IMG/VR virus record: IMGVR_UViG_3300047476_001238
Span: 15,712-79,711 of that record
Strand: one strand, 5' to 3'
Length of the DNA: 64,000 bases
Source: a virus
Taxonomy: Duplodnaviria; Heunggongvirae; Uroviricota; Caudoviricetes
A program made the position numbers and the translations under genes. Below, piece after piece: positions 13,260 to 55,366 of this stretch. The notes under the pieces are model-generated. The model did no database searches. It worked only from the letters and a program-made list of their open reading frames with translations, and had not been told where the DNA came from. Position 1 is the first letter of the stretch. Every line of letters begins with the position of its first letter.

Positions 13260-13261
13260 TA

Positions 13262-37730: not shown

Positions 37731-38086
37731 TTTTGACTGTCCCCGGGCTGCACACGATAATTGTCCTCTACCGAGTCTGGTGTTGAGACTTCAATAATCA
37801 CACCTTCTTCAATACAAATCAACTGATGCGGAAACAGGGGCTGATTGCGCCACACATCGCCTACATGTAGTTCCTGTTCTTGCTGAGCTGCATTTTTTGT
37901 ATCAATGTACTTGACTATAAATTTGCCACTTAGCACATACCAGGTCTCATCTTTTTCTGCATGAAAGTGCATGCTAAATCGAGCACCTGGATTAAATTTC
38001 ATTAGCTTACCGCAATAACGATCGTTAGTGGCCCAAATTAGTTCATGTCCCCAGCCTTTTTCTACAAATCCTTCTAGTCTTGTCAT
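37727..38086 (-). CDS. cupin-domain protein (119 aa), possible sugar isomerase/epimerase
   Basis: WGHE...FNPGARFSMHFHAEKDETWYVLSG is a two-His cupin motif. Confidence 0.55.
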   Translation of the reverse strand: MTRLEGFVEKGWGHELIWATNDRYCGKLMKFNPGARFSMHFHAEKDETWYVLSGKFIVKYIDTKNAAQQEQELHVGDVWRNQPLFPHQLICIEEGVIIEVSTPDSVEDNYRVQPGDSQK

Positions 38087-38856: not shown

Positions 38857-39565
38857 TATTTTGTAATGGCTTAATTTTAATTGTTTCTAGCACAGAACTT
38901 TTACCCAGTCCCATAGCAATACTGTAGGCGGCACTTTGATTGCCCATGAACAAATCTGCACCAGCTATTACATCAGCAAGTTCTTTAAAGTCTTTTACAG
39001 CATAGTAGTTTACACGAAAACCAGTGCTTTTTTCAAAGTCTTCATGTTCGTCTTGTGTGCCAACAAATATGCCGTTTTGTGAGATATTGGCCTGTTCCAG
39101 TAGATTTTGCCAGGTGCCTGTGCCATTGGGACAACGATATCTAAATGTTCTATTGATTACCACAGGTGCCACACGCACAGGATCAGCTTCTAGCCATGTT
39201 TCGTTATAGATGTCAGCAGTGACTGGCATGCCAAATGTTCTATGATAGGCTTCAACATAGTTGCCTTCGAATCCGCGGAATAACACACCACGAAAACGAT
39301 CTAGATCCACATCATGGTCACCGGTCCAGACTGTGACAGAGTCAATGTATGATTGCCTTGACAACAAGGGTTTAATCAAATCAAGATCCGCATTGCGGAA
39401 TCTTCCTTGATGTGCAGGATCTACTTCATCGGGTCTATAACCGTATTGGGCTACACAATGTTCTATGTTCTCTAGGTGTACAGCAAAAGTGCCGCCACCC
39501 ATTTTTTTAACCACACTTAGACTGTAGATCAAATCGCCAAATGTTCCTGAATGTCTAAAAATCAT
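38816..39565 (-). CDS. glycosyltransferase family 9 (LPS heptosyltransferase-like) 1
   Basis: FRHSGTFGDLIYSLSVV N-terminal block and C-terminal FMGNQSAAYSIAMGLG, as in WaaC/WaaF. The start is uncertain (39565 or 39619). Confidence 0.7.
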   Translation of the reverse strand: MIFRHSGTFGDLIYSLSVVKKMGGGTFAVHLENIEHCVAQYGYRPDEVDPAHQGRFRNADLDLIKPLLSRQSYIDSVTVWTGDHDVDLDRFRGVLFRGFEGNYVEAYHRTFGMPVTADIYNETWLEADPVRVAPVVINRTFRYRCPNGTGTWQNLLEQANISQNGIFVGTQDEHEDFEKSTGFRVNYYAVKDFKELADVIAGADLFMGNQSAAYSIAMGLGKSSVLETIKIKPLQNNECYFPRPNCQYF

Positions 39566-39770
39566 ATTCTGTTTTAAAATTATAGTTTGAATACATACTA
39601 CCTGGCTGACCAGGTTCATTACTTTCTGTACATTTTAATCTATGATCGCTAGCATGCGGGCAACGTTTATTGCCACACTTGGAGCATACAATCATTCGTG
39701 ATGCGGAAACTGGGAATCCGTATTCATTACGAACTCCATCTAAACAACGATGACAATTTCCACAGTTCAT
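39555..39770 (-). CDS. small Cys-rich protein (71 aa)
   Basis: CGNCHRC...CSKCGNKRC suggests a zinc ribbon. Confidence 0.4.
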   Translation of the reverse strand: MNCGNCHRCLDGVRNEYGFPVSASRMIVCSKCGNKRCPHASDHRLKCTESNEPGQPGSMYSNYNFKTEYDF

Positions 39771-40639
39771 AAGATCTCTAATATGTTAACTGCAATGCGC
39801 TCGGCATCAAAGCTGTTGCTGCAACGAAAATCTCCGTACTTGCAAACAACCTGACTAACAGGCCGTTGTTGATGGTCGTTGCAACCCACACATTCAACTG
39901 AGGATTTAATAGCAGTGTAAGGTTTGTGTTGAGGAGCAATACGTTCAGGTAATAAATGCGTATGCAGACTCACAATGTGTGTGCCACTGGCTACTGCAAT
40001 ATGATATGGGCCGGAATCAATTCCAACAAAGCACCGGGCATGATCCATTAGCAATTTTTGTTGTTGAACACTTAGCCGATCTCTGGCGTCGACAAACAAC
40101 GGATGCTCCACCAATCCATCCTGTGCAGAACCTACACATACAATCTTGAAGTCTGTGCGTTCAGTAAACAGCCGTTCAAACACAGCATACCAAGTGTCCC
40201 AACTCATGTTCTTCAATGGCCAATACCACTGTCTGATATGAACCACAATGTAGTTGTCTAGTTCGTTGTCTTGTAAAAATCCATTTACAGTTGCTACATC
40301 AACTTCGTTGTGGAACAGCTCGGGCGTTTTTGTATCCACTGCTGATGTACCAAAAGCGCGATAGAAATAGCTGTCCAGATAATGATTGAGAGGATTCTGC
40401 TCGTAGGCATCATCCAGATTAATGTATAAATCATATTTGGCCGGGTCCGGCATTGCATTGGTATGATAAATTGCTCTCACGTGAGGATTATTATCATACA
40501 CGTTAGGAAACTCTGTGGCCACATCTATTTCACAGGTATATCTATTTTTAAGTTCGCGCACCACGCCGGTGCTCATAATCACATCGCCAAGTGCTGCACG
40601 TCTGCGTACCAGTATCTGTTGCGGGCGTTCAATATTCAA
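39767..40639 (-). CDS. glycosyltransferase family 9 (LPS heptosyltransferase-like) 2
   Basis: ILVRRRAALGDVIMSTGVVRELK and FVGIDSGPYHIAVASG GT9 signatures. Confidence 0.78.
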   Translation of the reverse strand: MNIERPQQILVRRRAALGDVIMSTGVVRELKNRYTCEIDVATEFPNVYDNNPHVRAIYHTNAMPDPAKYDLYINLDDAYEQNPLNHYLDSYFYRAFGTSAVDTKTPELFHNEVDVATVNGFLQDNELDNYIVVHIRQWYWPLKNMSWDTWYAVFERLFTERTDFKIVCVGSAQDGLVEHPLFVDARDRLSVQQQKLLMDHARCFVGIDSGPYHIAVASGTHIVSLHTHLLPERIAPQHKPYTAIKSSVECVGCNDHQQRPVSQVVCKYGDFRCSNSFDAERIAVNILEIL

Positions 40640-41840
40640 TCTCTACCTCTGGGAAATAACGCAGGAATCTATCATCCATACAATTGCGTTTGGTTTTAAT
40701 TTTTTCTCTAATCTCTTTAAAGAAATTCCACGCCAAGGGTATAAACAAAATCTTGTCATTGTCAGTGTAGTTGTCTAGCACATCAGATCCAACAACAGGA
40801 ATATCCATACCCGGGCTGTAGGTATTTTGTTTAAGTGGATTGTCGTCAATTATACAATCCAATTTGAGTTTTGTGTAATTAAGTAAGGTCATTCCTTTGG
40901 CAGCGGCGCCATACCCAACCAACTTGAATCCAAGTTCTCGATACTCTGCACAGATTTCAATAAGAAAATTTTTAATTGCAAAAACATCGTCGGCCCATTT
41001 TTCGTAGGTTGCTGGATCTTGCAGTTGAGATTCCATGGCAATTAAATTCTTGATGTGTTTGGGTCGTTTATGATTAGGACTCAACACAAATACATAACTG
41101 GTACCGTGTATGGGAGTTTTAATTACGTCTACTAGATTCCACCCAGCTTGTTTGGCCATAGCCCGCATAGACTGAATACAATAGAAACTGATATGTTCGT
41201 GATAGATAGTATCAAATTCGCCATTGAGTACCATGTCGGCTTGGCTGGTCTGAACAAAGAACAGTCCATCCTCTTTCATTAATGGTTCTAACAGTCGTAG
41301 GTATTCAACAGGATTGGGAATATGTGCAAATGCATTTTGCGAGACCACAATGTCAAACTTGCTGTGCTTTAGTTGATTAATGGACTTCTTGTCCCAAAAA
41401 CCACAAACAACTTTATGACCTTTTTTAGAACTTGTTTTGTACAAGTTTTCTGCAGGATCTACACCATGTGTAGTAAATCCAATTTGTCTAAATGCATCTA
41501 GTTGGCTACCATCATTACAGCCAATATCTAATACGTGTCCATGCCAACAATCCACATACTCTCTGCACCAACGTGCAAACCAATCCATGTATTCAAGATA
41601 TGTTTGACTGGTCCCGCTTACATAGGCATAGTTTTTGTAGATTGTTTCTGGATTAACAACATGAGTTAATTGCAAATGATTACAATCCGCACATCTATTA
41701 ACTGCCAAAGGATACTCGGTGTTCTGCCCGGGTTCCTTTAAAAAATTATTAGCCAATGGCTGATCGCCTAGATCTAGAGTGCTGACTAAATCTTTGCTGC
41801 CACAAGCAACACATTCATCAAGCTTTGCCAATTCTGTCAT
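40629..41840 (-). CDS. SAM-dependent sugar C-methyltransferase (TylC3/NovU-like, zinc-ribbon N-terminus)
   Basis: N-terminal CVACGS...CADCNH zinc ribbon, class I motif VLDIGCNDGSQL, and a C-terminal C-methyltransferase-like domain. Confidence 0.75.
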   Translation of the reverse strand: MTELAKLDECVACGSKDLVSTLDLGDQPLANNFLKEPGQNTEYPLAVNRCADCNHLQLTHVVNPETIYKNYAYVSGTSQTYLEYMDWFARWCREYVDCWHGHVLDIGCNDGSQLDAFRQIGFTTHGVDPAENLYKTSSKKGHKVVCGFWDKKSINQLKHSKFDIVVSQNAFAHIPNPVEYLRLLEPLMKEDGLFFVQTSQADMVLNGEFDTIYHEHISFYCIQSMRAMAKQAGWNLVDVIKTPIHGTSYVFVLSPNHKRPKHIKNLIAMESQLQDPATYEKWADDVFAIKNFLIEICAEYRELGFKLVGYGAAAKGMTLLNYTKLKLDCIIDDNPLKQNTYSPGMDIPVVGSDVLDNYTDNDKILFIPLAWNFFKEIREKIKTKRNCMDDRFLRYFPEVEIEY

Positions 41841-41841
41841 A

Positions 41842-42564
41842 TTAATTTTTAATTGCTACACCATTGGGTGCAATTGAACCTTCAACACCAAGTACAGGAA
41901 TTTCTGTCACTAATTCTGTTGGTAAGAACTTGTACAGTACATGTTCAATGTCTGCATAACCGCCTGCAGACACACGCTGTGCCATATAATTTAAACTGTC
42001 TGTGTACGTTTGAATTACACGTTCAGTTTGATCGGCCGGCCACGACCAAAGTCTAGCCATGTATTGTAGTTCGATACCAGTCACTTCAAACGGAAACTGA
42101 CTGCGATTCTTTGGACCAATTATGATTCGATCTGAGTGTTCCTGGTAGATGCCAAGATCAAATTCGTCGTTTAGAATATAGCGGCCTGACATTTTGTGAA
42201 TTCTATCTACGTCTGCAAAGTCGCCGTCGTCTAAACACATTCTTAATGTTTTACCAAAACACATTATTTCAGTACTGTTCTTTACAATATCCCAATTGTC
42301 AGTGCTGTTGTAGATAGCACGTACATCGGCATCTGTGCTAAAGTCTACTAAAAGATCGCAATTTTCTTCTAACAGTTGGCTCTGAGCCTCAGTTAGTGGT
42401 GTTCCGGTACACTCCATGATAATGATTTTAGAGCCTGGAGCTCGAGCTCTAATACTGTCTATTGTTGTTAATGTTTGTTGTAATCGAGCAGCCGGTGTAT
42501 ATACGCCAAATTTTGAATTGATTGCGCTGGTCACTACAAAACAGTGTTTAATTGTTTGATTCAT
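41842..42564 (-). CDS. hypothetical protein (240 aa) in the glycan operon
   Basis: Coupled ORF with no motif. Confidence 0.45.
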   Translation of the reverse strand: MNQTIKHCFVVTSAINSKFGVYTPAARLQQTLTTIDSIRARAPGSKIIIMECTGTPLTEAQSQLLEENCDLLVDFSTDADVRAIYNSTDNWDIVKNSTEIMCFGKTLRMCLDDGDFADVDRIHKMSGRYILNDEFDLGIYQEHSDRIIIGPKNRSQFPFEVTGIELQYMARLWSWPADQTERVIQTYTDSLNYMAQRVSAGGYADIEHVLYKFLPTELVTEIPVLGVEGSIAPNGVAIKN

Positions 42565-43595
42565 TTACGCAACCATCTTTCATTATGTAATGTCCACTGC
42601 ACCATTTCGTTAATACGCTCGCTCAATTTAATCTTGGGTTCCCATCCTAGACTCTTTAGTAGACCACCGTCTAGTGCATAGCGCATGTCGTGTCCTGGGC
42701 GGCTGGTATGAAAATCGGTCATTTCATACTTGAGTTCCTTGCCCACAGCAGCGGCGATCATTTGTGCTAGGGTAAGATTATCAATTTCTTCTGTACCAAC
42801 AAGGTTAAACTTCGGGCAGTGAGCGTGGCCGTAGTCTCCCGAGTGAGTATAATCCTTGAGGCCGAGTATGAACATAAGACCCTCAGCAACATCTCGGGCA
42901 TGGATATACATTCTACTACCTGCCACGGTTCTCGTCGGATCACTGTGTATGATGACTGTTTCCCCATCTCTTACCTTTTGAATAGTTGCCGGAATAAACT
43001 TTTCCGGATGCTGACGCTCACCAAATACATTCATAGTATGGGTGACCACAATAGGCATCTTGTAAGTGTTTTCATATGCAACACAAAACTCTTCCGCTGC
43101 CGCTTTAGACGCTGAATAGGGGTTGGTTGAGTTATATCTATCATACTCTTTATACGATACACCTGGCGGTGCAATCCCATATATCTCGTCAGTGGAAAAG
43201 TATACAAAGCGTTCCAGATTTGGTAAGTTTTTCCTTGCATAGTCTAACATATTGACAGTACCAACTACATTGTCCTGCACAAACTCCATCGGGTAAGCAA
43301 TTGAACGATCCACGTGACTGCCTGCCGCCAAGTGTAGGATGATATCTACCGGTCCAATATCGTGTGCAATTTGACTATTGATTTCGGCACGAAGATCGTG
43401 GAACACAATACGCAACCGCTTGCTTGTTGTTATTGGGTTGTGAGTCATCAACATATCAGCCAATCGATTTAAATTTCCTGATATGTCAAGACGATCCAAA
43501 CAGATAATGTTCCAATCTGTATCTTGTAAAATTTTATCTATAACATGATGCGCGATGAACCCAGCACCGCCGGTGACTAAAACTGTTTTTGACAT
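42561..43595 (-). CDS. NDP-sugar 4,6-dehydratase (RmlB-like SDR)
   Basis: VLVTGGAGFIAHHV Rossmann motif, STDEIYG, YSASKAAAE catalytic YxxxK, and a length of 344 aa. Confidence 0.85.
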   Translation of the reverse strand: MSKTVLVTGGAGFIAHHVIDKILQDTDWNIICLDRLDISGNLNRLADMLMTHNPITTSKRLRIVFHDLRAEINSQIAHDIGPVDIILHLAAGSHVDRSIAYPMEFVQDNVVGTVNMLDYARKNLPNLERFVYFSTDEIYGIAPPGVSYKEYDRYNSTNPYSASKAAAEEFCVAYENTYKMPIVVTHTMNVFGERQHPEKFIPATIQKVRDGETVIIHSDPTRTVAGSRMYIHARDVAEGLMFILGLKDYTHSGDYGHAHCPKFNLVGTEEIDNLTLAQMIAAAVGKELKYEMTDFHTSRPGHDMRYALDGGLLKSLGWEPKIKLSERINEMVQWTLHNERWLRK

Positions 43596-43625
43596 GAATC
43601 CTCAGTAATTGTTGAATAAATGTAT

Positions 43626-43775
43626 TTATTCGCCTGCTTTTGGGGCGATAAATTGCTTGATATGACTCATTGCTTTTCGGGCAGTATCAAATACGTACTC
43701 CACGGTTTCGTCCTCAAGCTGGACGGTGACTACAAAACCATTTGCGACTTTTCTAATTTCAATTGATTCAAACAT
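43626..43775 (-). CDS. small hypothetical protein (49 aa)
   Basis: AAGGAA RBS 5 nt upstream of the ATG and a TTGACT-N17-TAAAAT promoter further upstream. Not in the supplied ORF track because it is under 60 aa. Confidence 0.35.
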   Translation of the reverse strand: MFESIEIRKVANGFVVTVQLEDETVEYVFDTARKAMSHIKQFIAPKAGE

Positions 43776-43831
43776 ATCATTCCTTGAGGTTATTGACATG
43801 CTATTTTAATAAATTAAACAAGAAAAGTCAA

Positions 43832-44464
43832 TTATTTTTGTACCAGTTGATCGACAAAGTTGAGCAAATAACTGTGTCTGCCACCGTGCCATTGACGACG
43901 CATCCACGAATAACTATTGTACCAATGAGGATCTGCTTCGGGATGGCAACCGATCAATCCTATTCGATCTTGAATAATGGCCATCGGAGCATGATTGGGG
44001 TAAGTTGCTATGGTTTCAAATTGCGAGCCTGTATATGTGCAACCATCATAAAAATACATACTTGTTTTGACACCTTGCCACTTGACTGGCATTTCTTTGG
44101 CGTGTGGTCTGCGTGTGCATGTTGTGGGGTGTTTGATATATTGTGTCACCCGCACGTTGTTGAGTAAACCCAAATAGTCAGTGTCGGCCCAATAGGCGCC
44201 CATGCATACGCCCAAATAATAACCGCCATCGGCCACAAAATTTCTGATACGTTGGCCATTTGCTCGCATTAGATAATCGTAAGAATCTGAATCACCAATG
44301 CCGCCTGGAACAGCCACTATATCAACATCATCAAAGAAATCGTCTTCTAGTTCGTGCCGTGTGAATATTTTAAAATTGTAATGGCGTCCCAGAGCGCGAA
44401 TTATACCGTTCCCGGACTGAACAGAACATTTGGGTTGATGTACAAAAAGAGCTATTGTTTTCAT
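43832..44464 (-). CDS. class I glutamine amidotransferase-like (DJ-1/PfpI-fold) protein
   Basis: VAVPGGIGDS...LGVCMGAY nucleophile-elbow-like motif. Confidence 0.5.
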   Translation of the reverse strand: MKTIALFVHQPKCSVQSGNGIIRALGRHYNFKIFTRHELEDDFFDDVDIVAVPGGIGDSDSYDYLMRANGQRIRNFVADGGYYLGVCMGAYWADTDYLGLLNNVRVTQYIKHPTTCTRRPHAKEMPVKWQGVKTSMYFYDGCTYTGSQFETIATYPNHAPMAIIQDRIGLIGCHPEADPHWYNSYSWMRRQWHGGRHSYLLNFVDQLVQK

Positions 44465-44703
44465 CGTGGACGATACCGCACACCAACATAGGTTCCTGCA
44501 AATGCCCCAACAGCAGCAGGAATTAACAACCAGGGATTATGCGCTGATCCAATTATGGCCGAAGCATACAAGATATAAAGAACAGTTGCCCATACAGATG
44601 CTTTCAATGCTTGCGCCCGTTGAATGGACTGTATGTAATAAGCATTGAATACGTCAGTAAAAAACATTGCAAAAAAGGCTGCTGGATATTCCCAAGTTAG
44701 CAT
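44461..44703 (-). CDS. small membrane protein (80 aa)
   Basis: Two transmembrane helices. Confidence 0.4.
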   Translation of the reverse strand: MLTWEYPAAFFAMFFTDVFNAYYIQSIQRAQALKASVWATVLYILYASAIIGSAHNPWLLIPAAVGAFAGTYVGVRYRPR

Positions 44704-44803: not shown

Positions 44804-46210
44804 TTAGAAATTCAATTGACTACGGAATATTACTGCTCTATCGCCATTTACTCGACTACCCGAACTGCCTACTAAACCATCAAACTTGGTGTCAACATAG
44901 TTTACCATAAAACGTAGGTTATCAGTAGCGAACCAAGTGATGCCGTAAGTTGTGGCAGTGGCACGATTGGTTTTGCCAGTTGCCACAGCAATATCGCCGG
45001 CGTCAAATTCGCTGAAACGCACACCAACTTGCCATGCCCCGCGACCACCTTTGTCCAGTGGATTAGCAGGTTTAACTGCGCTAAACACACCATCCTTGTA
45101 GTTGTAGCTTTCGCCGGTTAGATTGTACAAGGCCTGTACATAATAACCTTTAATTTCTTGATTGCTACCTGTGGTAGGATCATATTTGAAATTAAATTGT
45201 TCACCTTGAAGTTTAAAAGCATTGTATGCAAAGGCTGCTTCTAGACCTTGACGAGTTCTGACAGTATCACCACTTAGTGCAGAACCTGTAAAGAAAGCAC
45301 TCTGTGATCTGCTCTCTGTGCGACTGCTAGCTGGTGCTACACCACCTTTGATATCACCTACACTGTATGCAGCACCTAGGTGTGCGATGTATGCCTTGCT
45401 GCCAGTAAGCTCAGCAATATTGGTTGTGACGCGACCAATATAGTCAAACCCATCGTTTGCGGCATCTTTGTTGCCACGACCGCGACTCACTGCCACAGCA
45501 TAGGTTAAACCAGTTTTAGGCACACCGTGCAGCATGAATCCTGTTTCCTTGCCAGGAATGAATTCACCTTCAACTTGACCTACTAGGCTACGTTCCATAA
45601 AATCAATATTGTTAGAACTGGTCAATTGCTCTAAGCTGAATGGCATCTTGAATAAACCAAACTGAAATTGCAGTTCAGGATTGGCTGCATAATTTACCCA
45701 GGCTACATCCATAAGGCTCGATGTTGAACTGAAGCCAACGTCGTTGCCAAAATTACCAACAAATTCGTATTTGAAATCCTTCTGGAATTGTCCACGTACA
45801 CCAAATCTAGCACGACGAACTTCTGCTAGGTTCTGATACGAATCTGTGGTTTGACCTGTACCGTAAGACGGGGAGTATTGACGATAGTCCATATGTAATC
45901 GACCTGTAAGCTGAATGGTATTGTTGCCATCTTTGCTTTTGAGCCCGATTCCGTTTTCGGTGACTGCACCATCGCTGGCCCTGGCTTGTCTGTATTTGAC
46001 TGACTCACTAACATCTTTGTCGATTCTTTGTTCTGCAAATCTTTTGTTTTCTGCTTTGTCTTTGTATTCTTCAACTTTGACATCATATTCCTTTTGTGTC
46101 AAGATACCTTTTTCACGTAAGATATTTAACGTGTCGATGTACTCGTCTGCGTATGCCGGCACACTAAATGCCAAACTTAACGCCAATGCAATTTTTGTAA
46201 ATGTTTTCAT
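44804..46210 (-). CDS. phosphate-selective porin O/P family outer membrane protein
   Basis: Signal peptide MKTFTKIALALSLAFSVPAYA, Lys/Arg-rich repetitive beta-strand pattern, C-terminal aromatic ...SQLNF. Length 468 aa is typical of OprO/OprP. Confidence 0.75.
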   Translation of the reverse strand: MKTFTKIALALSLAFSVPAYADEYIDTLNILREKGILTQKEYDVKVEEYKDKAENKRFAEQRIDKDVSESVKYRQARASDGAVTENGIGLKSKDGNNTIQLTGRLHMDYRQYSPSYGTGQTTDSYQNLAEVRRARFGVRGQFQKDFKYEFVGNFGNDVGFSSTSSLMDVAWVNYAANPELQFQFGLFKMPFSLEQLTSSNNIDFMERSLVGQVEGEFIPGKETGFMLHGVPKTGLTYAVAVSRGRGNKDAANDGFDYIGRVTTNIAELTGSKAYIAHLGAAYSVGDIKGGVAPASSRTESRSQSAFFTGSALSGDTVRTRQGLEAAFAYNAFKLQGEQFNFKYDPTTGSNQEIKGYYVQALYNLTGESYNYKDGVFSAVKPANPLDKGGRGAWQVGVRFSEFDAGDIAVATGKTNRATATTYGITWFATDNLRFMVNYVDTKFDGLVGSSGSRVNGDRAVIFRSQLNF

Positions 46211-46219
46211 TACTGTTCC

Positions 46220-47246
46220 TTATTTCCAAATTGGGTTGCCATCGGGACCTTTTAGATCACGTTTCCAACTGTCCTGATTTAATTTTATAACCGCCTGTGG
46301 CAAGTGAACGTATTCTAGTTCTTCACTCATCTTGGCTCCGTTCTTCCAACTCCAATCAAAGAATTTAAGAACAGCACGACCTGTTAGCGCATCTGCCTGA
46401 GACTTGTGCATGATAATAAAACTTGCACCTGTTGCTGGCCAAGCATCTCGGCCTGTCTGCCAGGTTAGTAGCAAATACATACCAGGAGCATTGACCCAGT
46501 CTGCGCCGGCTGCTGCTGCTTTGAATGTTGAGTCATCTGGTGATACAAAATTGCCATCGCGATTTTTTAGCTGTGCAAAAGTAATTTTATTTCTTTTAGC
46601 GAATGCATATTCTACATAACCAAATGCACCTTTGATACGCTGCACTTGTACAGCAACGCCTTCGTTGCCTTTACCGCCTACACCCACTGGCCATTTGACA
46701 GCAGTACCTTCGCCAACACCTTTAGCAAAATCAGCACTGGCTTTGCTTAAGAAGTTAGTCCAGATAAATGTAGTGCCTGAACCATCTGCACGATGAATTA
46801 CCACGATAGGAATAGCAGGCATACTAACACCTGGGTTCAAGTCTGCGATTGCTTTGTCATTCCACTTAGTGATTTTACCAAGATGAATGTTTGCAACGAT
46901 TTCGGGGGTTAACTTCAATTGACCTGGCGCAATACCGTCTAAGTTAAAAACTGGAACTACTCCGCCAATGATTGCCGGGAATTGCATTAGGCCTTCTTTT
47001 TCAAGTTCTTCTAATTTTAGTGGCATATCACTAGCACCAAAGTCTACTGTTTTTCCTTTGATTTGCTTGATACCGCCGCCTGATCCAATTGATTGATAAT
47101 TGAGACCAATACCTGTTGCTGCTTTGTATGCCTCAGCCCACTTGGCATAGATAGGAAAAGGGAATGTTGCTCCTGCTCCTGTTAATTCTGCTGCTCCGGC
47201 ATATCCGGTTAGTGCAACGAATACAATTGCTAATAGTTTTTTCACT
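46220..47246 (-). CDS. pstS: phosphate ABC transporter substrate-binding protein
   Basis: GTG start with a GGAG RBS, a signal peptide, and PstS blocks TGAGATFPFPIY, SIGSGGG, DFGASD, ADGSGTTF. Confidence 0.88.
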
Positions 47247-47321
47247 CTATAATCTCCATTTAATGTGCATTGCACAATAATATTTAAACATAGCAAGATT
47301 ACAAGCGTGTTACAAAACCAT

Positions 47322-47348
47322 AAAAAAAGGCACAAAAGTGCCTTTTTT
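47322..47348. terminator. bidirectional rho-independent terminator (GGCAC-AAAA-GTGCC)
   Basis: Perfect hairpin flanked by an A-run and a T-run, between pstS and the OMP gene. Confidence 0.6.
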
Positions 47349-47368
47349 GATTAAAATATTTAATCTAA

Positions 47369-47929
47369 TTAGAAACTACGTGTATAACTCACACGCCATT
47401 GATTAGTTTCTGTGTCGCCGTAGCTACGTGCATAACGAACACCCACTGAATCTTTAGGTGTGACTGCATAGTTCAAGCCAAAGTGTGGTCTAGTGGTTTG
47501 AAAATTGTTAGCTGTGTCGTATGCATTACGATATCTAACACCCACATCACCACTCAGTGAGCCGGCGATAGGAAATCTTGTACCAACGATAACATTGTAC
47601 TGTGCAAAGGTGTCGTTTGATTTCACAATTTGTCCGGTACGTAGACTGACATATGGCTTTAGGGTACCAAGATCAAACAATCTAGTGACACGAGCCTCTA
47701 GTCCGTTTGTAATTGCGCCATCACCTAGTTCGGCTTGACTGGTACGCATCTGTACAGAAAAATCCCAAGTTTTGTCTACTGTCATACCAGGTACAATTGC
47801 GTAGGCATAGTTTTTGGCACTGGTGTTGACATTTTCTTCGTCGTAGTATTCGAAGCGAACGTATCCTTTGGTCTCAGCCTGCGCTGCACCAGCAATTAAT
47901 AATGCAAATAATAGTAAAAATTTTTTCAT
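47369..47929 (-). CDS. small outer membrane beta-barrel protein (OmpW/OmpA-like, 8-10 strands)
   Basis: Signal peptide MKKFLLLFALLIAGAAQA, alternating hydrophobic beta pattern, and a C-terminal ...YTRSF. Confidence 0.6.
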   Translation of the reverse strand: MKKFLLLFALLIAGAAQAETKGYVRFEYYDEENVNTSAKNYAYAIVPGMTVDKTWDFSVQMRTSQAELGDGAITNGLEARVTRLFDLGTLKPYVSLRTGQIVKSNDTFAQYNVIVGTRFPIAGSLSGDVGVRYRNAYDTANNFQTTRPHFGLNYAVTPKDSVGVRYARSYGDTETNQWRVSYTRSF

Positions 47930-47957
47930 TGTTTTCTCCTTAAAAAAAATTGTTTAA

Positions 47958-48797
47958 TTAATCAGCCCAATTGGACTGCATTTTAGTGACGTACTGATTT
48001 ACTTCATCTAAATCTTTTTGCTTGATATCCCAATTGGCAACTGTGTCTGATGTTTCTAAAAATTTGTTAAAGTCTCTGCTTTGAACAGCGTATCTAAGAT
48101 TTTTTAGAACATTGGGATCAGTTGCATTAGTGTATACCACATAGGTAATTTGGAAATTAGGAATAGGTAAATTTAGTTTTTTACCAATAAAGTTTTTGGC
48201 TGCGGGATCTGTGCTGTAGATACAATCAAGATTGGCGCCTTGTTTTTTTGCCATTCCTGATCCTATCCAACCCAGGTCAACATCGCCAGACCGTACAGCA
48301 GTCACAATTTCTGCGCTACCAGGATATGGAACCAATTTGGTACTTGATCCGGCGCTGACAAAATTGTTTTCATGCTTGGGTACGGCGTACATACTGGCCA
48401 TGCCTAGTGTAGTTTTGTTATTACCAAAATCCACTGTTGACCCTGGTTTACGGCAGATGTTCACATAAGTATAACCAATGAACAGTATCTGCTGAGGCTT
48501 AATGCCTGCCAATGAGCAATTGATTTTTTTATTGCGAGCAGCAAAATCAATTGAACTGTTGTAAACCATAACAGCATTTTTATTGTTGTTAAAAGTGGCG
48601 ATAGCATCTTCGCAATCTCGTGCTTGATACCAGTCTCCATTAACAGCACTTCTATAGGCCTGACCCACCACTGTGGCAGGACTGGCTTTGTTGCTTGGAT
48701 TGATCACAAGAGGTTCCACTAAGTTAGCTGAACCAGGTTCAGCTACAGCAGATCCCATTGTCAAAATCAAAGCAGTTATAAAACTAACAAATTTCAT
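47958..48797 (-). CDS. TctC/Bug-family-like periplasmic substrate-binding protein
   Basis: Signal peptide MKFVSFITALILTMGSAVA. LVPYPGSAEIVTAVRSGDVDLGW resembles the TctC VPYKGG...GG.VD motif. Confidence 0.55.
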   Translation of the reverse strand: MKFVSFITALILTMGSAVAEPGSANLVEPLVINPSNKASPATVVGQAYRSAVNGDWYQARDCEDAIATFNNNKNAVMVYNSSIDFAARNKKINCSLAGIKPQQILFIGYTYVNICRKPGSTVDFGNNKTTLGMASMYAVPKHENNFVSAGSSTKLVPYPGSAEIVTAVRSGDVDLGWIGSGMAKKQGANLDCIYSTDPAAKNFIGKKLNLPIPNFQITYVVYTNATDPNVLKNLRYAVQSRDFNKFLETSDTVANWDIKQKDLDEVNQYVTKMQSNWAD

Positions 48798-48808
48798 TTT
48801 TTTTCTCC

Positions 48809-50101
48809 TTAGAAATAAAGTGTGTAAGCTTGTAAATATAACCAAACAAGTTTGTCGCCCAAAATTATTGTAAACAACAATGGTAATGAGCTAACGTTCT
48901 TGAATTTTAAAATTAAACCTATTGTAGTAAAAAATGCAAGTAAAGTCAAGTATGATACTACCGTAGTTTCGGCTGTGTACAAGTCAATGCCTATCAGTGC
49001 TGCCACAACTCCAATCATGACAAATTTCATTCGAGAATGTAAACTCACAATCAATCTAGCATAAAAATCTATTAGCCGTGTGCTCAAAAAATAGTAAACA
49101 AACAAACTAACTGTTAACGAAATCGCAGTGATATCTAGCACAGTCAGTGTGCCCATGAAACTATTTTCAAATATAGCACTTGGTAAGAATAAACTTTTTA
49201 AGTCTGCCAGATTTGACATTATCAAAGTGTTTTGATTGATTGGTAATGCAAATGCCAGCAGCGGCAATGCACATGCAATAACCGAACTGTTGTTTGCAGT
49301 TTCAGCAGCAACGATTCGATCATTAGTGCCAATTGTGGTTTTATAGGCCAATACTGATGCAGTAGTTGCACTTGGTCCGGGAACCAGTCCGGCCACTATA
49401 CCAAGTACAGTTGACTTCGCAGTCAGCCATAAATTTTGAGTTCTGCGAGCGATGTAATTCAATTGACTGTCATAGGTTGAACTGTCGTGTTTGGCAAACA
49501 CCTGCGGTATGATCATTACTCCCAGTAGTACCATAAAGAATGTGTACCCTTGAAATAAAGTTTTTAGTTCAAACCACGATGCTGTGATTGCATAATTGTT
49601 CTGTGGACTAATTGCAAATCCTAAACAGATTAACAATAAGGTCCACAGATAGTTTTTGTTTACATACAACAAACTTAATAACGTGATTGTGTATAAAACT
49701 ATCTGAAACTTTATACTGGACAAGAATGGTAAATTATCCAAGTTTACATACTGTAAAGCCACGTAGAGAAACACAGTACTCGCTATACCTGCAATTAAAC
49801 TACCAACAGCAGTTTGATACAACAATGCACGACGTTCATCTAGTGTAAGATAATCTAGATCTTTGAGATATACTAAAGAACTTTCTTCCCCAGGTATCTT
49901 GGTTGTAATAGTGGCCACGCTGCCAAAAAATTGACTGCCAGACACTACTACTAACCAAAACACCAGCAAGTACTCCAACGATAAATCGTTGTGAAAGTAA
50001 TACAGTATGAAAGGGCCTATGTAAACAGGCAATGCTGGAAGCAAGCCTGTTATGATACCCACAAAGATACCTGCCAGAATAATTAAAGTTAATGTAATCA
50101 C
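48809..50101 (-). CDS. tctA: TctA-family (tripartite tricarboxylate transporter large subunit) membrane protein
   Basis: 430 aa polytopic protein with repeated halves and the GLVPGPSATTA signature of TctA/DUF112. Starts on a GTG. Confidence 0.75.
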   Translation of the reverse strand: MITLTLIILAGIFVGIITGLLPALPVYIGPFILYYFHNDLSLEYLLVFWLVVVSGSQFFGSVATITTKIPGEESSLVYLKDLDYLTLDERRALLYQTAVGSLIAGIASTVFLYVALQYVNLDNLPFLSSIKFQIVLYTITLLSLLYVNKNYLWTLLLICLGFAISPQNNYAITASWFELKTLFQGYTFFMVLLGVMIIPQVFAKHDSSTYDSQLNYIARRTQNLWLTAKSTVLGIVAGLVPGPSATTASVLAYKTTIGTNDRIVAAETANNSSVIACALPLLAFALPINQNTLIMSNLADLKSLFLPSAIFENSFMGTLTVLDITAISLTVSLFVYYFLSTRLIDFYARLIVSLHSRMKFVMIGVVAALIGIDLYTAETTVVSYLTLLAFFTTIGLILKFKNVSSLPLLFTIILGDKLVWLYLQAYTLYF

Positions 50102-50269
50102 GATGCCAAAATAAACTCGTAGAGAAATTACAATCTCAAAATTTAGTTTATATGCTTGTAGGGGATCTACGTACGGTCGGCGTTATACTGAAACACAGTA
50201 AAAAGGAGTTGTTTCTCTCCCCGTCGATTTTTGAACCGGCGTCAACAGAACGTTGGCGCTGCATAAGTT

Positions 50270-50277
50270 TATTTATA
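50270..50277 (-). promoter_or_regulatory. T4-type late promoter motif TATAAATA, about 170 nt upstream of tctA and overlapping the GT17 stop codon
   Basis: Exact octamer on the coding strand. Confidence 0.4.
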
Positions 50278-51103
50278 CTAGATAAGATCTTGCACTAGGA
50301 AAATTTCCAACAATAATATTGCTACTACCTTGTACATGCTTGGGCAAGTATTCATCTACTGCAACAGGAGCAAAACGATAATTTACATCGGTCTGTATAA
50401 TACCTGCACCACGTGCTATACTGGCTTCTATGTCCAGCTGTTCGAGTATGTCTGGCCGATTGGTTTCTGCATGAGCAAAACTTTGTATTTTGGTTTTTGC
50501 AAAATCTTCGTTGCCAAGATAAGTGAAATGCCACCCGGCATGTTCAACAATTTCCAGCATGGAATCTCGGGCTCCGTATTCAAAATCATTTAATGCGTGT
50601 CGCATGCGTCTAAAATCTTCTGCACTGACCAATAGTTTTTTTCTTAATGCGCCGGACCAGACTGTGTAGCAATCTTGGTTGATCAGCATGTAATTGTATC
50701 GGAAATTGAACAGGGGCATACGGAATCCCCAAATACTTCTTTCACTGGTTCTTAGATAATCCACTGTTTCTGGACGCGGAATTTCGTCTGCATCACCAAT
50801 CATGATAATATCTTCTGGTGCGGCATCGGCTACCGCTTGCACAATAGCATCGCGTTGATACCGTTCTCTTGCCCAAGCATCTGTGTCCACAGGCATATCT
50901 TCTACTACATAATGTATTATTTTGTCTGCCCATTCAGCGAATCGAATCGCATTTTCTTTGTAGTACAATGGTTTTTCTTTGTTCTGGAAAGTTCTTCTGG
51001 CTTCAACCAAAACAAAATGATCCACATGATCATAAAGTTCACGGAGACGTAGTTCTAGTAGCTCGAACTCGTTAAAAAATGTAAAACAGTCGTAGATTTT
51101 CAT
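50273..51103 (-). CDS. glycosyltransferase family 17-like protein
   Basis: N-terminus MKIYDCFTFFNEFELLELRL is typical of bacterial and phage GT17 homologs. DADEIP acidic motif present. Confidence 0.65.
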   Translation of the reverse strand: MKIYDCFTFFNEFELLELRLRELYDHVDHFVLVEARRTFQNKEKPLYYKENAIRFAEWADKIIHYVVEDMPVDTDAWARERYQRDAIVQAVADAAPEDIIMIGDADEIPRPETVDYLRTSERSIWGFRMPLFNFRYNYMLINQDCYTVWSGALRKKLLVSAEDFRRMRHALNDFEYGARDSMLEIVEHAGWHFTYLGNEDFAKTKIQSFAHAETNRPDILEQLDIEASIARGAGIIQTDVNYRFAPVAVDEYLPKHVQGSSNIIVGNFPSARSYLV

Positions 51104-51154
51104 GTCAATACTTAGTATAATAAATACTCTACAAATTGATTTTCAAGGAACTAT

Positions 51155-51796
51155 ATGCACGCCGTTGCTAGTCTACACGATGCCAATTATGCTGATTTGG
51201 CAAAACTAACCGATTCACCAAAACAAGAATACTGCGAACGTCACGGATACAAATTTTTTGTGCTTGATGAAATGAAGTATAGCACAATTACTGGCTTTAA
51301 CAAAATTCATTTTACTCTAGACTTATTCCAACAGCACCCAGAAATTGAATGGCTGTTGTTTAGTGAGTGCGACGCAATGATTACCAATTTAACAATTCGA
51401 ATTGAGGATCGTGTGGATGACAACTATCACTTTATTGTGCCTGTGGATCGACTGAATCTAAACTCAGGCAATTTCCTGGCTCGCAATAGCGAACAAGGTC
51501 GTGCATACTTGCAAATGATTGTAGACAGTGAAGCCGAATACAAAGATGTTGAATGGGCCGAACAACAAGTGATCATCGATACCATTGATCAATACCAAGA
51601 CATTGTCAAAATTGTTCCGCAAAAATACATGAACAGCTACGAACCGGAAATTTACGACTACTGCGACGCCAGCCGAGATATACTAGGCAACAGCGGTGCG
51701 TGGGAACCCGGAGATTGGATTGTTCATTGGCCCGGAACATACAAACCCACACGCATCAGTCGAGCAAATCATCACCTATCACAATTGACCAGATGA
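51155..51796 (+). CDS. putative GT-A glycosyltransferase (GMA12/MNN10-like)
   Basis: DXD-like ECD and a C-terminal HWPG. Confidence is low. Confidence 0.4.
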   Translation: MHAVASLHDANYADLAKLTDSPKQEYCERHGYKFFVLDEMKYSTITGFNKIHFTLDLFQQHPEIEWLLFSECDAMITNLTIRIEDRVDDNYHFIVPVDRLNLNSGNFLARNSEQGRAYLQMIVDSEAEYKDVEWAEQQVIIDTIDQYQDIVKIVPQKYMNSYEPEIYDYCDASRDILGNSGAWEPGDWIVHWPGTYKPTRISRANHHLSQLTR

Positions 51797-52635
51797 AAAT
51801 TTTTATTACTGGCGCTACAGGTTTTGTTGGGCAAAACCTAGTAGATTATTATTCTAAACGCGGTCACGAAGTCTATGCATTTCGTAGAGATGAGCAATTA
51901 CACGAATGCTTGCGTAAATTTCAGCCAGACGCTATAATTAACTCAGCAGCCGAGATATACGATCCCGAACACATGTTTGAACCGAACATTGTAATGGTTC
52001 AGACTGTGTTAGAATATGTTCGCGAATGTGATCAATACTGCCGTTTGGTTCAAATTGGTTCCAGCAGTGAATATGGGCCAACTGATCACTCAACTGCTGA
52101 AACAGATTTATTGAAGCCAGTTGATTACTATCAAGCTACCAAAGGTGCTGCAACATTGATGTGCCAAGGCTGGGCAAGATTTTTCAATTTGCCCGTTTGG
52201 ATTGTGAGACCGTACAGTGTATATGGCCCAGGTGAACGACCGCATAGATTGTTTCCTAGGTTGTATCGTGCGTTCAATTACAACGAGCCAATGACTCTGT
52301 ATCAAGGACATCATGATTTCATTTATATAAATGATTTTGTTCGTGGAATTGATTTGGTATTGCAAGAATGGGACCTGGCTCCGGGAGAAATTGTGAACTT
52401 CGGTAGCGGATCACAAACAAGTAATTTTGATCTATTGGACTTATGGATACGTATTACAGAAAATACCAATGCACCGGTGGCCAAGGTGGCCGAAATGCGA
52501 AAGGCGTTTGAAAACAACGTATGGGTCTGTGACGTTGCCAAATCTTTCAAATTGGGATTTGACTGCGAGTACACATTAGAAACAGGAATAAGAGATTTTT
52601 TATTAAAGGCAAAATATGATAGAACGATTAATTAA
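51793..52635 (+). CDS. NAD-dependent sugar epimerase/reductase (SDR, RmlD/GalE-like)
   Basis: Start at the ATG overlapping the upstream stop (ATGA). Rossmann motif ITGATGFVGQNL and YYQATK (YxxxK). Confidence 0.78.
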   Translation: MKIFITGATGFVGQNLVDYYSKRGHEVYAFRRDEQLHECLRKFQPDAIINSAAEIYDPEHMFEPNIVMVQTVLEYVRECDQYCRLVQIGSSSEYGPTDHSTAETDLLKPVDYYQATKGAATLMCQGWARFFNLPVWIVRPYSVYGPGERPHRLFPRLYRAFNYNEPMTLYQGHHDFIYINDFVRGIDLVLQEWDLAPGEIVNFGSGSQTSNFDLLDLWIRITENTNAPVAKVAEMRKAFENNVWVCDVAKSFKLGFDCEYTLETGIRDFLLKAKYDRTIN

Positions 52636-53323
52636 AACAAGTCAACAAAAGGACTTTGTTTATCAAAGCGAACATCCCGATGTCACGGCATGGTTCAATA
52701 ATCCAGAAAATTACACTGATGTAATTTTGAAACAAATAAACGAGGACGGCATGTACGATCCTATTTTTGCTGGACGCACTGATATGACTGTGCTTGATCT
52801 TGGAGCCAATTGCGGACTGTTCAGTTTATATGCAGCAGACAGTTGCAAGAAACTGATCTCTGTAGAACCAACACCAAAAACATTTGGTGTACTACAAGAA
52901 ATTGTTCGAGATCACGCAAATATTACTCCATTACAACTGGCTATTGGTCCACACAACGAAATGATTTCGTTCTATATTAACGAAAACTCAACCACCAATA
53001 GCATGCTCAATCGTAATGGCACCGAAACTCAAGTACAATGTATGACCCTAGAAACTTTGTTTCACATGCAGGGACTTGATCATGTAGACTTTATCAAATG
53101 TGACATTGAAGGTTCAGAAATGCAAGCATTAACTGATGCTACTCTTGGTCCAATTGCAGACCGGGTTAATTTTTGGTTTGTGGAAGTTCACCAAACTGAT
53201 GTTAAAGAAAATGCCTGGCCTGGCAACCTGGGTGCAAATAGGCAGCAACTTGCTGAACTGTTTCAACGTCACGGGTATCAAACTGAAATGGTCATTCACG
53301 ATCAATTGCTTGCATGGAAATGA
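52616..53323 (+). CDS. FkbM-family SAM methyltransferase
   Basis: VLDLGANCGLFSLYAA and FIKCDIEGSE FkbM signature blocks. Confidence 0.75.
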   Translation: MIERLIKTSQQKDFVYQSEHPDVTAWFNNPENYTDVILKQINEDGMYDPIFAGRTDMTVLDLGANCGLFSLYAADSCKKLISVEPTPKTFGVLQEIVRDHANITPLQLAIGPHNEMISFYINENSTTNSMLNRNGTETQVQCMTLETLFHMQGLDHVDFIKCDIEGSEMQALTDATLGPIADRVNFWFVEVHQTDVKENAWPGNLGANRQQLAELFQRHGYQTEMVIHDQLLAWK

Positions 53324-53934
53324 ACACACTAGCTCGTAGGGTAATTGATATTACCTACCAAGAACGTCTGAGTCACCTCAGCTCGACACTGAGTGCTTTG
53401 CCTATTATTGAAGAAATTTATGCTCAGAAGAAGGATGATGAAGTATTCATTCTGAGTAATGGTCATGCAGGACTTGCTCTATACGTGGTGCTTGAAAAAT
53501 ACCACGGTGTTGATCCAGTTGCTATGCTTCACAAACATGGGATCCATCCAGGTAGAGATCTAGAGAATCATTTGTACTGCTCTACAGGCAGTCTTGGTTC
53601 TGGATTACCTATCGCAGTTGGACACGCATTGGCAACTCCCAACAAGCAAGTTTACTGCATGATCAGTGACGGCGAAGCAGCCGAAGGTAGTATCTGGGAA
53701 GCATTACGTTTTATACAAGATAATAACATCACTAATCTACATGTGTACGTAAACATCAATGGTATGGGTGCATACGATGAGTTAGATACTCATCAATTGG
53801 CCTATCGGCTAGAAGCATTTTTACCTAGGATCAATTTAAGATTTAGCGATCCACCGCGATGGTCATTTGCAAAAGACCTACTAACACATTATTATGTTCT
53901 TAAAGAGCAAGACTACAAGGAGATTACTCAATGA
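53314..53934 (+). CDS. transketolase-like TPP enzyme, N-terminal (PP-domain) subunit
   Basis: GH...GSLGSGLPIAVGHALA and SDGEAAEGSIWEA (GDG-x-EG) thiamine-diphosphate-binding motifs. Only 206 aa. Confidence 0.8.
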   Translation: MEMNTLARRVIDITYQERLSHLSSTLSALPIIEEIYAQKKDDEVFILSNGHAGLALYVVLEKYHGVDPVAMLHKHGIHPGRDLENHLYCSTGSLGSGLPIAVGHALATPNKQVYCMISDGEAAEGSIWEALRFIQDNNITNLHVYVNINGMGAYDELDTHQLAYRLEAFLPRINLRFSDPPRWSFAKDLLTHYYVLKEQDYKEITQ

Positions 53935-54413
53935 GAAAAGAGTGTGCTAGTCTGTTATTAGAAAGCATGGTCAATACCGACCATATTCGTGTGATCACTG
54001 CTGATCTTGGATTTGGCATTTTGGACCAAATTCGCAATGCTTTTCCAGAACGTTTTTACAATGTTGGTGCAGCCGAACAACTGATGATTGGTGCTGCTGT
54101 AGGAATGGCACAAGAAGGTCTAGTACCTGTGTGTTATTCGATGAGTAGCTTTTTGCTCTATCGTCCTTTTGAATTCTTACGCAATTATGTCAATCACGAA
54201 CAGATACCAGTTAAACTGATTGGCTCTGGTAGAGATCGGGATTATAGCCACGATGGTATTAGCCATTGGGCACACGATGACGAACAGGTGCTTGCTGCTT
54301 TACCAAATATTAAATTATACAAACCTCAATCAATTGCTGAACTAGAGGATATTTGGCCTGTGTTTATTGGTTCCAAAGAACCTGCTTATTTAAATTTGAC
54401 AAGAAAAATATGA
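53931..54413 (+). CDS. transketolase-like TPP enzyme, pyrimidine-binding subunit (short, lacks the C-terminal domain)
   Basis: FNVGAAEQ, a Pyr-domain GxDGxTH-like SHDGISHWAHDD, and only 160 aa. Confidence 0.7.
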   Translation: MRKECASLLLESMVNTDHIRVITADLGFGILDQIRNAFPERFYNVGAAEQLMIGAAVGMAQEGLVPVCYSMSSFLLYRPFEFLRNYVNHEQIPVKLIGSGRDRDYSHDGISHWAHDDEQVLAALPNIKLYKPQSIAELEDIWPVFIGSKEPAYLNLTRKI

Positions 54414-55366
54414 CAACAAAAGTAGTTTACGTCACCGGCTGTCTGGGCTTTATTGGATATCACGTGACTAAAAAATGTCTAGCACAAGGATACTATGTTA
54501 TTGGTGTAGACAAGAAAACCTATGCAGCAAATGTACAGTTCCTTCCAGAACTGTTAGAATATAAAGATCAGTTCAAGTTCATTGATTCCGATATCAACGA
54601 TCTTGACATGCTGTACGACTGTGATTATATTATCAATACCGCAGCCGAGACACATGTTGATAACAGTATTGTGAGCAGTGATGTTTTCTTACGTAGCAAT
54701 GTAAATGGTGTACATCATTTGCTCAACTTGATCAAAGAGCGTCATCGTTTCAAAATGCCCACGCTACTGCATTTTAGTACAGACGAAGTCTACGGCGACA
54801 TCGAAGAAGGCGCACATGTTGAAACAGATCTACTAAAACCTAGTAATCCTTATTCGGCCACAAAAGCAGCAGCGGATCAATTGATTATTGCATGGGCACG
54901 TACATTCCGGGTGCCTTATGTTATTGTTAGACCTACAAACAATTACGGCATTGGTCAATACACAGAAAAGTTTATTCCTAAAACTATTAAGAGTTTGCAG
55001 TTAGGAAGAAAAATTCCGCTGCATGATGCCGGTATGCCACGCCGTACTTGGCTTCATGTGAGTGATACTGCATCGGCTGTTATAAAAATCATTGAGTCTG
55101 GTGTTCAAAACGAAATTTTCAACATAAGCGGAAATCACGAAGAACAAAATATTGTGATTGCCATGCAAATTATTGATATGTTTTGTCCCAACGAAGTAGA
55201 CGATTACGATTTGTATTTGGACTTGTCTATTAAACGACCCGGACAAGATGTTCGATACAGTATTGACGATCAAAAATTAAAGGCTCTTGGATGGAAACCA
55301 AAAGCTATTTTTGAAGTAGAACTGGCTAAGATTGTTCAGTACTATTCCCAGACGTTTGTGTGGTAG
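54410..55366 (+). CDS. NDP-sugar 4,6-dehydratase/epimerase (SDR)
   Basis: ATGA-coupled start. VYVTGCLGFIGYHV, STDEVYG, YSATKAAAD. Confidence 0.82.
   Translation: MTTKVVYVTGCLGFIGYHVTKKCLAQGYYVIGVDKKTYAANVQFLPELLEYKDQFKFIDSDINDLDMLYDCDYIINTAAETHVDNSIVSSDVFLRSNVNGVHHLLNLIKERHRFKMPTLLHFSTDEVYGDIEEGAHVETDLLKPSNPYSATKAAADQLIIAWARTFRVPYVIVRPTNNYGIGQYTEKFIPKTIKSLQLGRKIPLHDAGMPRRTWLHVSDTASAVIKIIESGVQNEIFNISGNHEEQNIVIAMQIIDMFCPNEVDDYDLYLDLSIKRPGQDVRYSIDDQKLKALGWKPKAIFEVELAKIVQYYSQTFVW

Follow-up and report, generated by a model that had tools for sequence, protein, structure and literature searches.

Gene organisation of the uptake island

The sequence analysed here, referred to throughout as the window, is a 64,000-nucleotide stretch corresponding to positions 15,712 to 79,711 of the IMG/VR record IMGVR_UViG_3300047476_001238. 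It is a replication and accessory region of a freshwater jumbo phage. Between its positions 44,804 and 50,101, five consecutive open reading frames (ORFs), all on the minus strand, form an island of envelope transport genes, and they were found at the coordinates given in a preliminary description made from the sequence alone. In the direction of transcription they encode a tctA-like permease (48809..50101, 430 aa), a divergent periplasmic binding protein of the TctC/Bug fold (47958..48797, 279 aa), a small outer-membrane protein (47369..47929, 186 aa), the phosphate-binding protein PstS (46220..47245, 341 aa) and a porin of the OprO/OprP family (44804..46210, 468 aa). A terminator scan recovered both intrinsic terminators listed in that description, again on the minus strand. 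The first one, with an 11-bp stem followed by a T-run (47348-47323), closes the unit made of tctA, the TctC-like gene and the small outer-membrane protein gene; the other one, with an 8-bp stem and a T-run (44759-44740), closes the pstS-porin operon.

All five products had been credited with a signal peptide. By inspection, four of them possess a Sec-type signal ending in A-x-A, and the polytopic TctA has none. Translational coupling had also been proposed between pstS and the porin gene. The two genes are indeed tightly linked, the ribosome-binding site overlapping the pstS stop codon, but their frames are 9 nt apart and do not overlap.

The island had initially been regarded as one unit. To compare gene orders, we scanned IMG/VR for relatives of the porin, which gave at least 98 viral contigs, and fetched 80 of the loci. 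The pstS gene is directly upstream of the porin gene in 80 out of 80, while tctA and the 279-aa gene are found nearby in none and the small outer-membrane protein gene in three. Other combinations exist. In locus L086, whose TctA is 76% identical to that of the window, the order is GT17-pstS-tctA-279-aa gene-small outer-membrane protein, without porin. In locus L102 (TctA 82% identical) the five genes are ordered as they are in the window, but behind a DNA ligase gene. Since the distributions of pstS-porin and of tctA-tctC-small outer-membrane protein differ, we consider them as two modules and not one, and the arrangements of L086 and L102 indicate that the island is a hotspot where separable cassettes combine.

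The pstS-porin operon and its promoter

The pstS gene begins with a GTG at position 47245, downstream of a GGAG ribosome-binding site, and the same start was selected by independent gene callers. In agreement with the earlier assignment, its product matches the NCBIfam PstS equivalog NF008171 with 406.8 bits (cut-off 339) and TIGR00975 with 374.7 bits (cut-off 205). It aligns with crystallised proteobacterial PstS with an E-value of 1e-111. The segments ATFP, GSGGG, ASD and RADGSGTT, which correspond to the phosphate-liganding ones of the E. coli phosphate-binding protein, are intact in this alignment. Neither PstC nor PstA is encoded in the window, where TctA is the only ORF with at least three hydrophobic segments. 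As no other polytopic membrane ORF is available, PstS would have to use the host PstCAB, as it does in cyanophages.

Upstream of pstS, at the -35 position of its promoter, lies a direct repeat resembling a Pho box, TTGTAAC-ACGC-TTGTAAT (47298..47315, minus strand). It is followed 11 nt downstream by a -10-like element TAAATA (47281..47286, minus strand). The 7+4+7 repeat presents the organisation of PhoB-dependent promoters, namely 7-bp repeats with an 11-bp phase in place of the -35 element. Of the 42 distinct viral pstS leaders, 31 contain a phased GTNAY-N6-GTNAY pair, located at -52 to -82 (expected: 0.018 per leader). In an alignment of 12 leaders both GTAA cores and the T-TAAATA-T element are invariant and the spacers are variable, and the pstS gene of L086 keeps the same leader although the porin is not there. 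From this conserved repeat preceding pstS-porin we infer a control by the host PhoB, for which host PhoBR control of a phage pstS offers a precedent (PMC10976474). A late promoter had been put forward for the island; for pstS-porin, the Pho-box-type promoter appears to be the driving one instead.

Three observations weigh against control by PhoB. About a quarter of the pstS leaders do not contain the strict phased pattern, most of these carrying relaxed or multi-copy repeats. TTGTAAC and TTGTAAT match the E. coli Pho-box half-site CTGTCAT at only 4 to 5 positions out of 7. Finally, bioinformatic Pho-box calls in phages have been cautioned to be unreliable and can fail (PMC10976474).

A palindrome, TGTGCA-A-TGCACA (47264..47276, minus strand), was also observed after the -10 element and ahead of the ribosome-binding site. 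Across loci L006-L086 its arms vary yet stay complementary (TGTGCA/TGCACA, TGTACA/TGTACA, TATGC/GCATA, GTACACA/TGTGTAC), and its centre comprises 1 to 3 nt depending on the phage. This covariation and the variable centre suggest a stem-loop at the 5' end of the RNA rather than an operator with fixed spacing.

The porin family was verified with the Pfam Porin_O_P model (174.3 bits for a cut-off of 20.9, model positions 1-346 of 370) and by alignment over the barrel with the OprO and OprP chains (E-value of 4e-20), which place the protein in the OprO/OprP family. Inspection of its ends revealed an export signal (MKTFTKIALALSLAFSVPAYA followed by DE) and a terminal aromatic residue (QLNF, C-terminal Phe), and the protein has an N-terminal extension of about 60 residues. 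When the porin is aligned to OprO with HMMER, the residues corresponding to R34, R59, R60, D94, S124, S125 and R133 are conserved; alignment of the second half of the ladder is unreliable. Speaking against phosphate selectivity, the counterparts of K13, K15, K25, K30, K109, K121 and K126 are replaced in the same alignment. The residue numbering and the roles (arginine ladder, central site, lysine cluster) follow the OprP literature. Phosphate selectivity, although conceivable from the family of the porin, is uncertain because the lysine-cluster residues are mostly replaced.

The viral relatives recovered from IMG/VR are full-length, share 67-85% identity with the porin and are encoded on contigs of up to 220 kb, and a tblastn search of GenBank phages with the porin returned none. 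A preprint of June 2026 reported oprP in amoC-phages from freshwater, part of which are PA5oct-like Arenbergviridae, with 60-76% or higher identity between phage OprP and the host homologs (bioRxiv 10.64898/2026.06.18.733297). In view of these contigs and of this preprint, a phosphate porin carried by a phage is not as unusual as the preliminary description had supposed. The nearest cellular porin that we found, P0256, from a metagenome-assembled genome of an uncultured freshwater Burkholderiales, is 47% identical, the 50% clustering used possibly hiding closer ones. Because of this clustering and of the phage/host identities of the preprint, the proposal that the porin has no close cellular homolog was dropped. 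In its own locus (L095), P0256 is located between ppx and corA and near phoX, a bacterial Pho-type neighbourhood, and TTGTCAT-CAAA-TT.. boxes are present at 4778-4900 and 7734-8000, upstream of the porin gene and of phoX.

The tctA cassette: permease, binding protein, small barrel and leader

The permease, translated from a GTG at position 50101, was recognised by the Pfam TctA model PF01970 (127.7 bits for a cut-off of 28.9, model positions 2-422 of 423), as expected from the earlier call, and exhibits about 10 to 12 hydrophobic segments. It belongs to a subfamily of about 430 aa, canonical TctA proteins having about 500 aa, which comprises more than 120 clusters, all metagenomic. A search of GenBank phages with TctA gave just two weak and doubtful records, and a metagenome scan for TctA relatives gave three loci.

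The second gene had been assigned to TctC with a length of 295 aa. The assignment to TctC/Bug stood, with a different start: the 295-aa version begins with a TTG, and the ATG at 48797 is better, being preceded by an AAGGAG ribosome-binding site and selected by the gene callers, and yields 279 aa with a signal peptide. Sequence comparison returned little. No Pfam or NCBIfam match was obtained at E<=0.1, a profile of the family retrieved nothing significant among the PDB sequences, the same profile scored only 14 bits against the canonical TctC of locus L098, and a single-sequence scan of viruses gave nothing. The assignment was recovered at the level of the fold. The AlphaFold2 model has a mean predicted local distance difference test score of 90.7, and the top 14 PDB matches listed by Foldseek are all TctC/Bug proteins (E-values of 2e-12 to 2e-8, 10-15% identity), so that the TctC/Bug binding-protein fold is confirmed for the predicted structure. 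The family is unnamed and comprises 74 clusters, with four invariant cysteines.

In ten independent phage-like loci, with TctA identities down to 38%, a member of this family immediately follows TctA, and this invariant adjacency also supports the TctC assignment. Several of these loci come from contigs of 105-338 kb and have phage-type neighbours. Among 185,579 species-representative genomes, the profile of the binding protein gave a single match, on a contig of 7 kb from a Polynucleobacter bin, whose TctA/TctC-like/DctP layout equals that of a 338-kb phage-like contig. The single cellular match being itself syntenic with a phage-like contig, the TctA/TctC-like pair is therefore essentially virus-restricted. 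As already remarked in the preliminary description, TctB is missing: no candidate ORF was found in the window, and none resembling TctB in the other TctA/TctC-like loci, TctB being poorly conserved so that a divergent or distant copy is possible. The genes flanking TctA in L087, L089, L097 and L098 encode soluble proteins, and those just upstream of it in distant loci, considered as cryptic TctB, were rejected because their products are soluble and PP-loop-like. Against a functional importer of this type, it must be noted that canonical tripartite tricarboxylate transporters need TctB, that the 279-aa protein fails the Pfam TctC model and that its N-terminal ligand-loop motif has diverged.

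Orphan genes of the DctP type, from tripartite ATP-independent periplasmic (TRAP) transporters, adjoin the pair without DctQM in L087 (8916-9857), L089 (4799-5740), L097 (8322-9266), L098 (8217-9194 and 2634-3506), L104 (1960-2928) and L105 (5942-6889), L098 also encoding a canonical Pfam TctC. Distant jumbo-phage-like contigs thus seem to collect periplasmic binding proteins. The presence of these DctP-type and canonical TctC genes alongside the pair fits a capture of organic anions, transport by the TctA/TctC-like system and the nature of its substrate being putative.

The 186-aa protein scores below the Pfam thresholds, with 21.3 bits for OMP_b-brl (threshold 28.7) and 23.4 bits for TonB_dep_Rec_b-barrel (threshold 27). 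Consistent with the earlier call of a small beta-barrel, it is predicted as a closed antiparallel 10-stranded barrel and has a signal peptide and a C-terminal Phe. Its predicted lumen is rich in arginines and cationic, and the arginines are invariant. In the subclade of the window the gene comes after the tctA-tctC-like pair, and across loci it is repeatedly linked to pstS. In L094, an 87-kb phage-like contig, the pstS gene overlaps the start of the small-barrel gene by 4 nt (5985-7570) and there is no OprP-type porin, the mini-barrel holding the position that the porin has in the window. The barrel may act as a channel. Several points argue against such a role at the side of TctA and TctC. 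The lumen side was assigned by strand parity and not from coordinates, and small barrels are often without an open channel. TctA-TctC also occurs without the barrel, in L087, L089, L097, L098 and L104, and the barrel occurs alone in L092, without any transporter partner.

The tctA cassette is preceded by a conserved non-coding leader of about 170 nt (50102..50277, minus strand), which extends from TATAAATAAAC to the GTG start of tctA, TATAAATAAAC overlapping the GT17 stop codon upstream. Among six variants, including those of the window, L099, L101, L086 (7830-8000) and L102 (2825-3000), the leader is 89-98% identical at the nucleotide level, whereas the third codon positions of the adjoining tctA reach only 54-79% identity and the upstream contexts bear no relation to one another. 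The terminator scan detected a terminator-like hairpin in the leader (GGGGAGAGAAACAACTCCTT then TTTTT, 50203..50222, minus strand), whose stem is invariant among relatives and whose loop is variable. Another hairpin keeps its pairing through changes, from CGGUU/AAUCG to CGGA/UCUG. The folding energy of the single sequence is unremarkable (z = -1.3), and a search of Rfam at E<=10 gave no match for the leader. A leader peptide was rejected, since the only small ORF, of 38 codons, is broken by indels in L101 and L102. The leader may be a new cis-regulatory RNA, which is our leading idea, or a small RNA.

At the 5' edge of the conserved block lies TATAAATA (50277-50270), previously interpreted as a late promoter motif. 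Six copies occur in the window for 4.7 expected, and the first two bases differ among relatives (TA, CA, GA, GG). As the motif is not enriched and these bases vary, a T4-type late promoter is not supported.

Phage context, interpretation and known systems

The window encodes a ribonucleotide reductase, a DnaB-type helicase, a primase and a UvsX-like recombinase, as well as phage-only PHROG families. Its helicase shares 45-49% identity with the helicases of three jumbo phages, Atu_ph07, PA5oct and Phosso. The parent contig is at least 137 kb long. Megablast searches of GenBank phages with the segment and with window positions 1-25000 gave nothing usefully close at the DNA level. In the whole window, the tRNA scan detected no tRNA and Rfam at gathering threshold no match. 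A freshwater betaproteobacterium is the probable host.

A large block of surface-sugar genes surrounds the island (window positions about 35400-44500 and 50273-55400). This block encodes a GT9 heptosyltransferase-like protein, a PfkB kinase and a CTP_transf_like protein reminiscent of ADP-heptose synthesis, a cupin/mannose-phosphate-isomerase-like protein, several epimerases or dehydratases, methyltransferases, GT17 and GT34. It suggests that the phage also remodels lipopolysaccharide or another glycan. Several radical-SAM enzymes are encoded elsewhere in the window on the minus strand (17869-19032, 20498-21451 and 61470-62747), and the related contig L089 has a run of four radical-SAM genes (10710-16248). 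Downstream of the porin gene, on the minus strand, an 80-aa hydrophobic protein (44461-44703) and a 210-aa BPL_N-domain protein (43832-44464) are encoded in overlapping frames. The same pair recurs in many of the loci L006-L085, no more than a few kb from the pstS-porin cassette and on either side of it.

In our interpretation, the island probably corresponds to two accessory modules for uptake, independent of each other, in a freshwater jumbo phage: a Pho-controlled pstS-porin operon and a TctB-less TctA/TctC-like importer accompanied by a barrel. In the first module, pstS and the OprP-family porin form one operon between the two terminators, with the direct repeat replacing the -35 element, and the host PhoB would switch this operon on when the infected cell is starved for phosphate. 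The porin would raise the permeability of the outer membrane to phosphate, and the extra PstS would hand it over to the host PstCAB importer, since the window encodes no PstC or PstA. More phosphate would thereby be available for phage DNA synthesis. In the second module, tctA, the TctC-fold protein and the arginine-lined 10-stranded barrel make up a distinct transcription unit behind the conserved leader and would work as a secondary importer of the tripartite tricarboxylate type devoid of TctB. The phage supplies the binding protein itself and possibly also an entry route through the outer membrane, which would serve a small anionic solute that probably bears a carboxylate. Overall, these features suggest that the phage re-equips the envelope of its host during infection, presumably to its own benefit. 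A more complete scheme is conceivable, though we regard it as doubtful: the virus-restricted TctA/TctC pair and the mini-porin would together constitute an anion import route from the outer membrane to the cytoplasm, gated by the leader RNA, with pstS-porin wired to PhoB.

Other functions can be imagined for the same genes. The TctA/TctC-like pair might import one specific precursor for a phage pathway, such as sugar or radical-SAM chemistry, instead of serving general carbon or energy supply, its link with phosphate reflecting only a shared hotspot. The restriction of the pair to viruses and the large distance of its binding protein from characterised Bug/TctC proteins suggest a special ligand, which the strongly conserved leader may sense. 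In different phages the pair moreover occupies differing accessory regions, where its neighbours are radical-SAM clusters or PP-loop enzymes. It has, however, no biosynthetic partner that accompanies it consistently, and its distant loci adjoin orphan DctP-type or canonical TctC proteins, which typically bind common organic acids, so that we consider this specialised role as not very likely. The porin and the barrel might alternatively mask or replace receptors and thereby exclude superinfecting phages, uptake being incidental; the porin of the lambdoid phage PA-2 is reportedly a precedent. Outer-membrane proteins account for two of the five products, the small barrel is also found without transporter partner, and the surrounding glycosyltransferase, heptosyltransferase and sugar-nucleotide genes would equally alter the cell surface. 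Yet the porin is always accompanied by pstS behind a Pho-box-like promoter, following the logic of a phosphate regulon, the ligand-binding segments of PstS are kept, and an inner-membrane permease with a periplasmic binding protein is left unexplained. Exclusion as the main function is in our opinion unlikely.

The composition of the island differs among close relatives, as would be the case for recently captured morons without function for the phage. Neutral passengers would hardly be expected to show what we observed: ORFs intact at 67-85% (porin) and 38-95% (TctA) amino acid identity in many phage lineages, conserved regulatory DNA, and persisting patterns of invariant cysteines and arginines. 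We thus hold this explanation for very improbable. The preliminary description had also envisaged a chimeric assembly, in which the segment would be host DNA joined by error to a phage contig. Its genes are bacterial in type, and host-like oprP regions have been warned to confuse assembly graphs (bioRxiv 10.64898/2026.06.18.733297). To control for this, we examined independent assemblies. The exact porin is present on five independently assembled contigs from JGI and Logan (two JGI samples and three SRA runs), with identical proteins, equal gene order and flanks matching on both sides, and the G+C content of the segment ranges from 0.38 to 0.45 without any break (window mean 0.40). The identical proteins and junctions and the absence of a G+C break led us to reject a chimera. 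In addition, pstS-porin recurs in the 80 diverged viral loci, the five-gene order recurs in the different phage context of L102, and the closest cellular porin found is merely 47% identical. The segment is almost certainly genuine phage DNA.

The two modules can be compared with known systems. A close parallel is the pstS of cyanophages (P-SSM2, S-PM2d; PMC10976474), where a phage PstS is likewise encoded without pstCAB, behind a Pho-box-type element, and is presumed to boost phosphate supply in starved hosts. The PstS of the window differs in being of the proteobacterial type (E. coli/Burkholderia) and co-transcribed with an outer-membrane porin. Its box is a TGTnA(C/T) 7+4+7 repeat, recognised from sequence alone, and not the cyanobacterial PyTTAAPyPy(T/A), and the probable host is a freshwater betaproteobacterium. 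With the amoC-phages the window shares an OprO/OprP-family porin in a large freshwater phage and a helicase resembling that of PA5oct. In the amoC-phage preprint oprP served as a host-like marker, with no mention of pstS, of a Pho box or of TctA, and the window encodes no amoC-like membrane ORF. Compared with the P. aeruginosa OprP and OprO structures (2o4v, 4rjw), the porin has the same Pfam family, a whole-barrel alignment and conserved GRL..DY, RRA, D-x-A, TSS and ER motifs. The similarity is distant (75 bits), several lysines of the OprP cluster are replaced, and the extra of about 60 N-terminal residues is shared with the nearest bacterial relative.

The second module resembles TctABC and Bug/TctC systems (4x9t, 2qpq, 6hke, 7ndr, 2f5x) in having a permease gene beside that of a TctC/Bug-fold protein in which VPY-G-S...A..GDID is present. 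It is distinguished by the lack of TctB, by a binding protein with 10-15% identity, four invariant cysteines and no Pfam TctC match, and by a TctC-like family almost confined to phage-like contigs. A 2014 list of SUP05 viral genes includes tctA as 'domain only'. No characterised relative of the small barrel was found, and its identity to ten-stranded barrels (Legionella porin I 9nh1, OpcA 2vdf, OmpT 7xw0 and the designed TMB10 8uzl) is 6-14%. Its loops are very short, so that those of adhesins and of proteases are both missing, and its lumen arginines are invariant.

The theme of auxiliary uptake is thus known, phage pstS being classic and phage oprP already reported. In the searchable literature we found no description of a virus-restricted TctA/TctC-like pair, an arginine-lined mini-barrel, a conserved Pho box of this kind or a tctA leader. 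The new components are hence the Pho-box-type pstS-porin operon, putatively under PhoB, the virus-restricted and TctB-less TctA/TctC-like pair, the arginine-lined mini-barrel and the constrained leader. The nutrient-capture genes known so far from phages mostly code for a lone binding protein, PstS for instance, which relies on transporters of the host. The window adds a binding protein combined with an outer-membrane channel under a conserved and putatively starvation-responsive promoter, and a permease with its own binding protein of a family that is apparently almost only viral. If functional, these modules would provide infected cells of phosphorus-limited lakes with virus-specified envelope permeability and uptake capacity, and would affect phosphorus and organic-acid fluxes as well as host range. 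They also offer a natural TctB-independent TctA system in which to study a poorly understood class of transporters, a minimal 10-stranded cationic barrel and a candidate new regulatory RNA.

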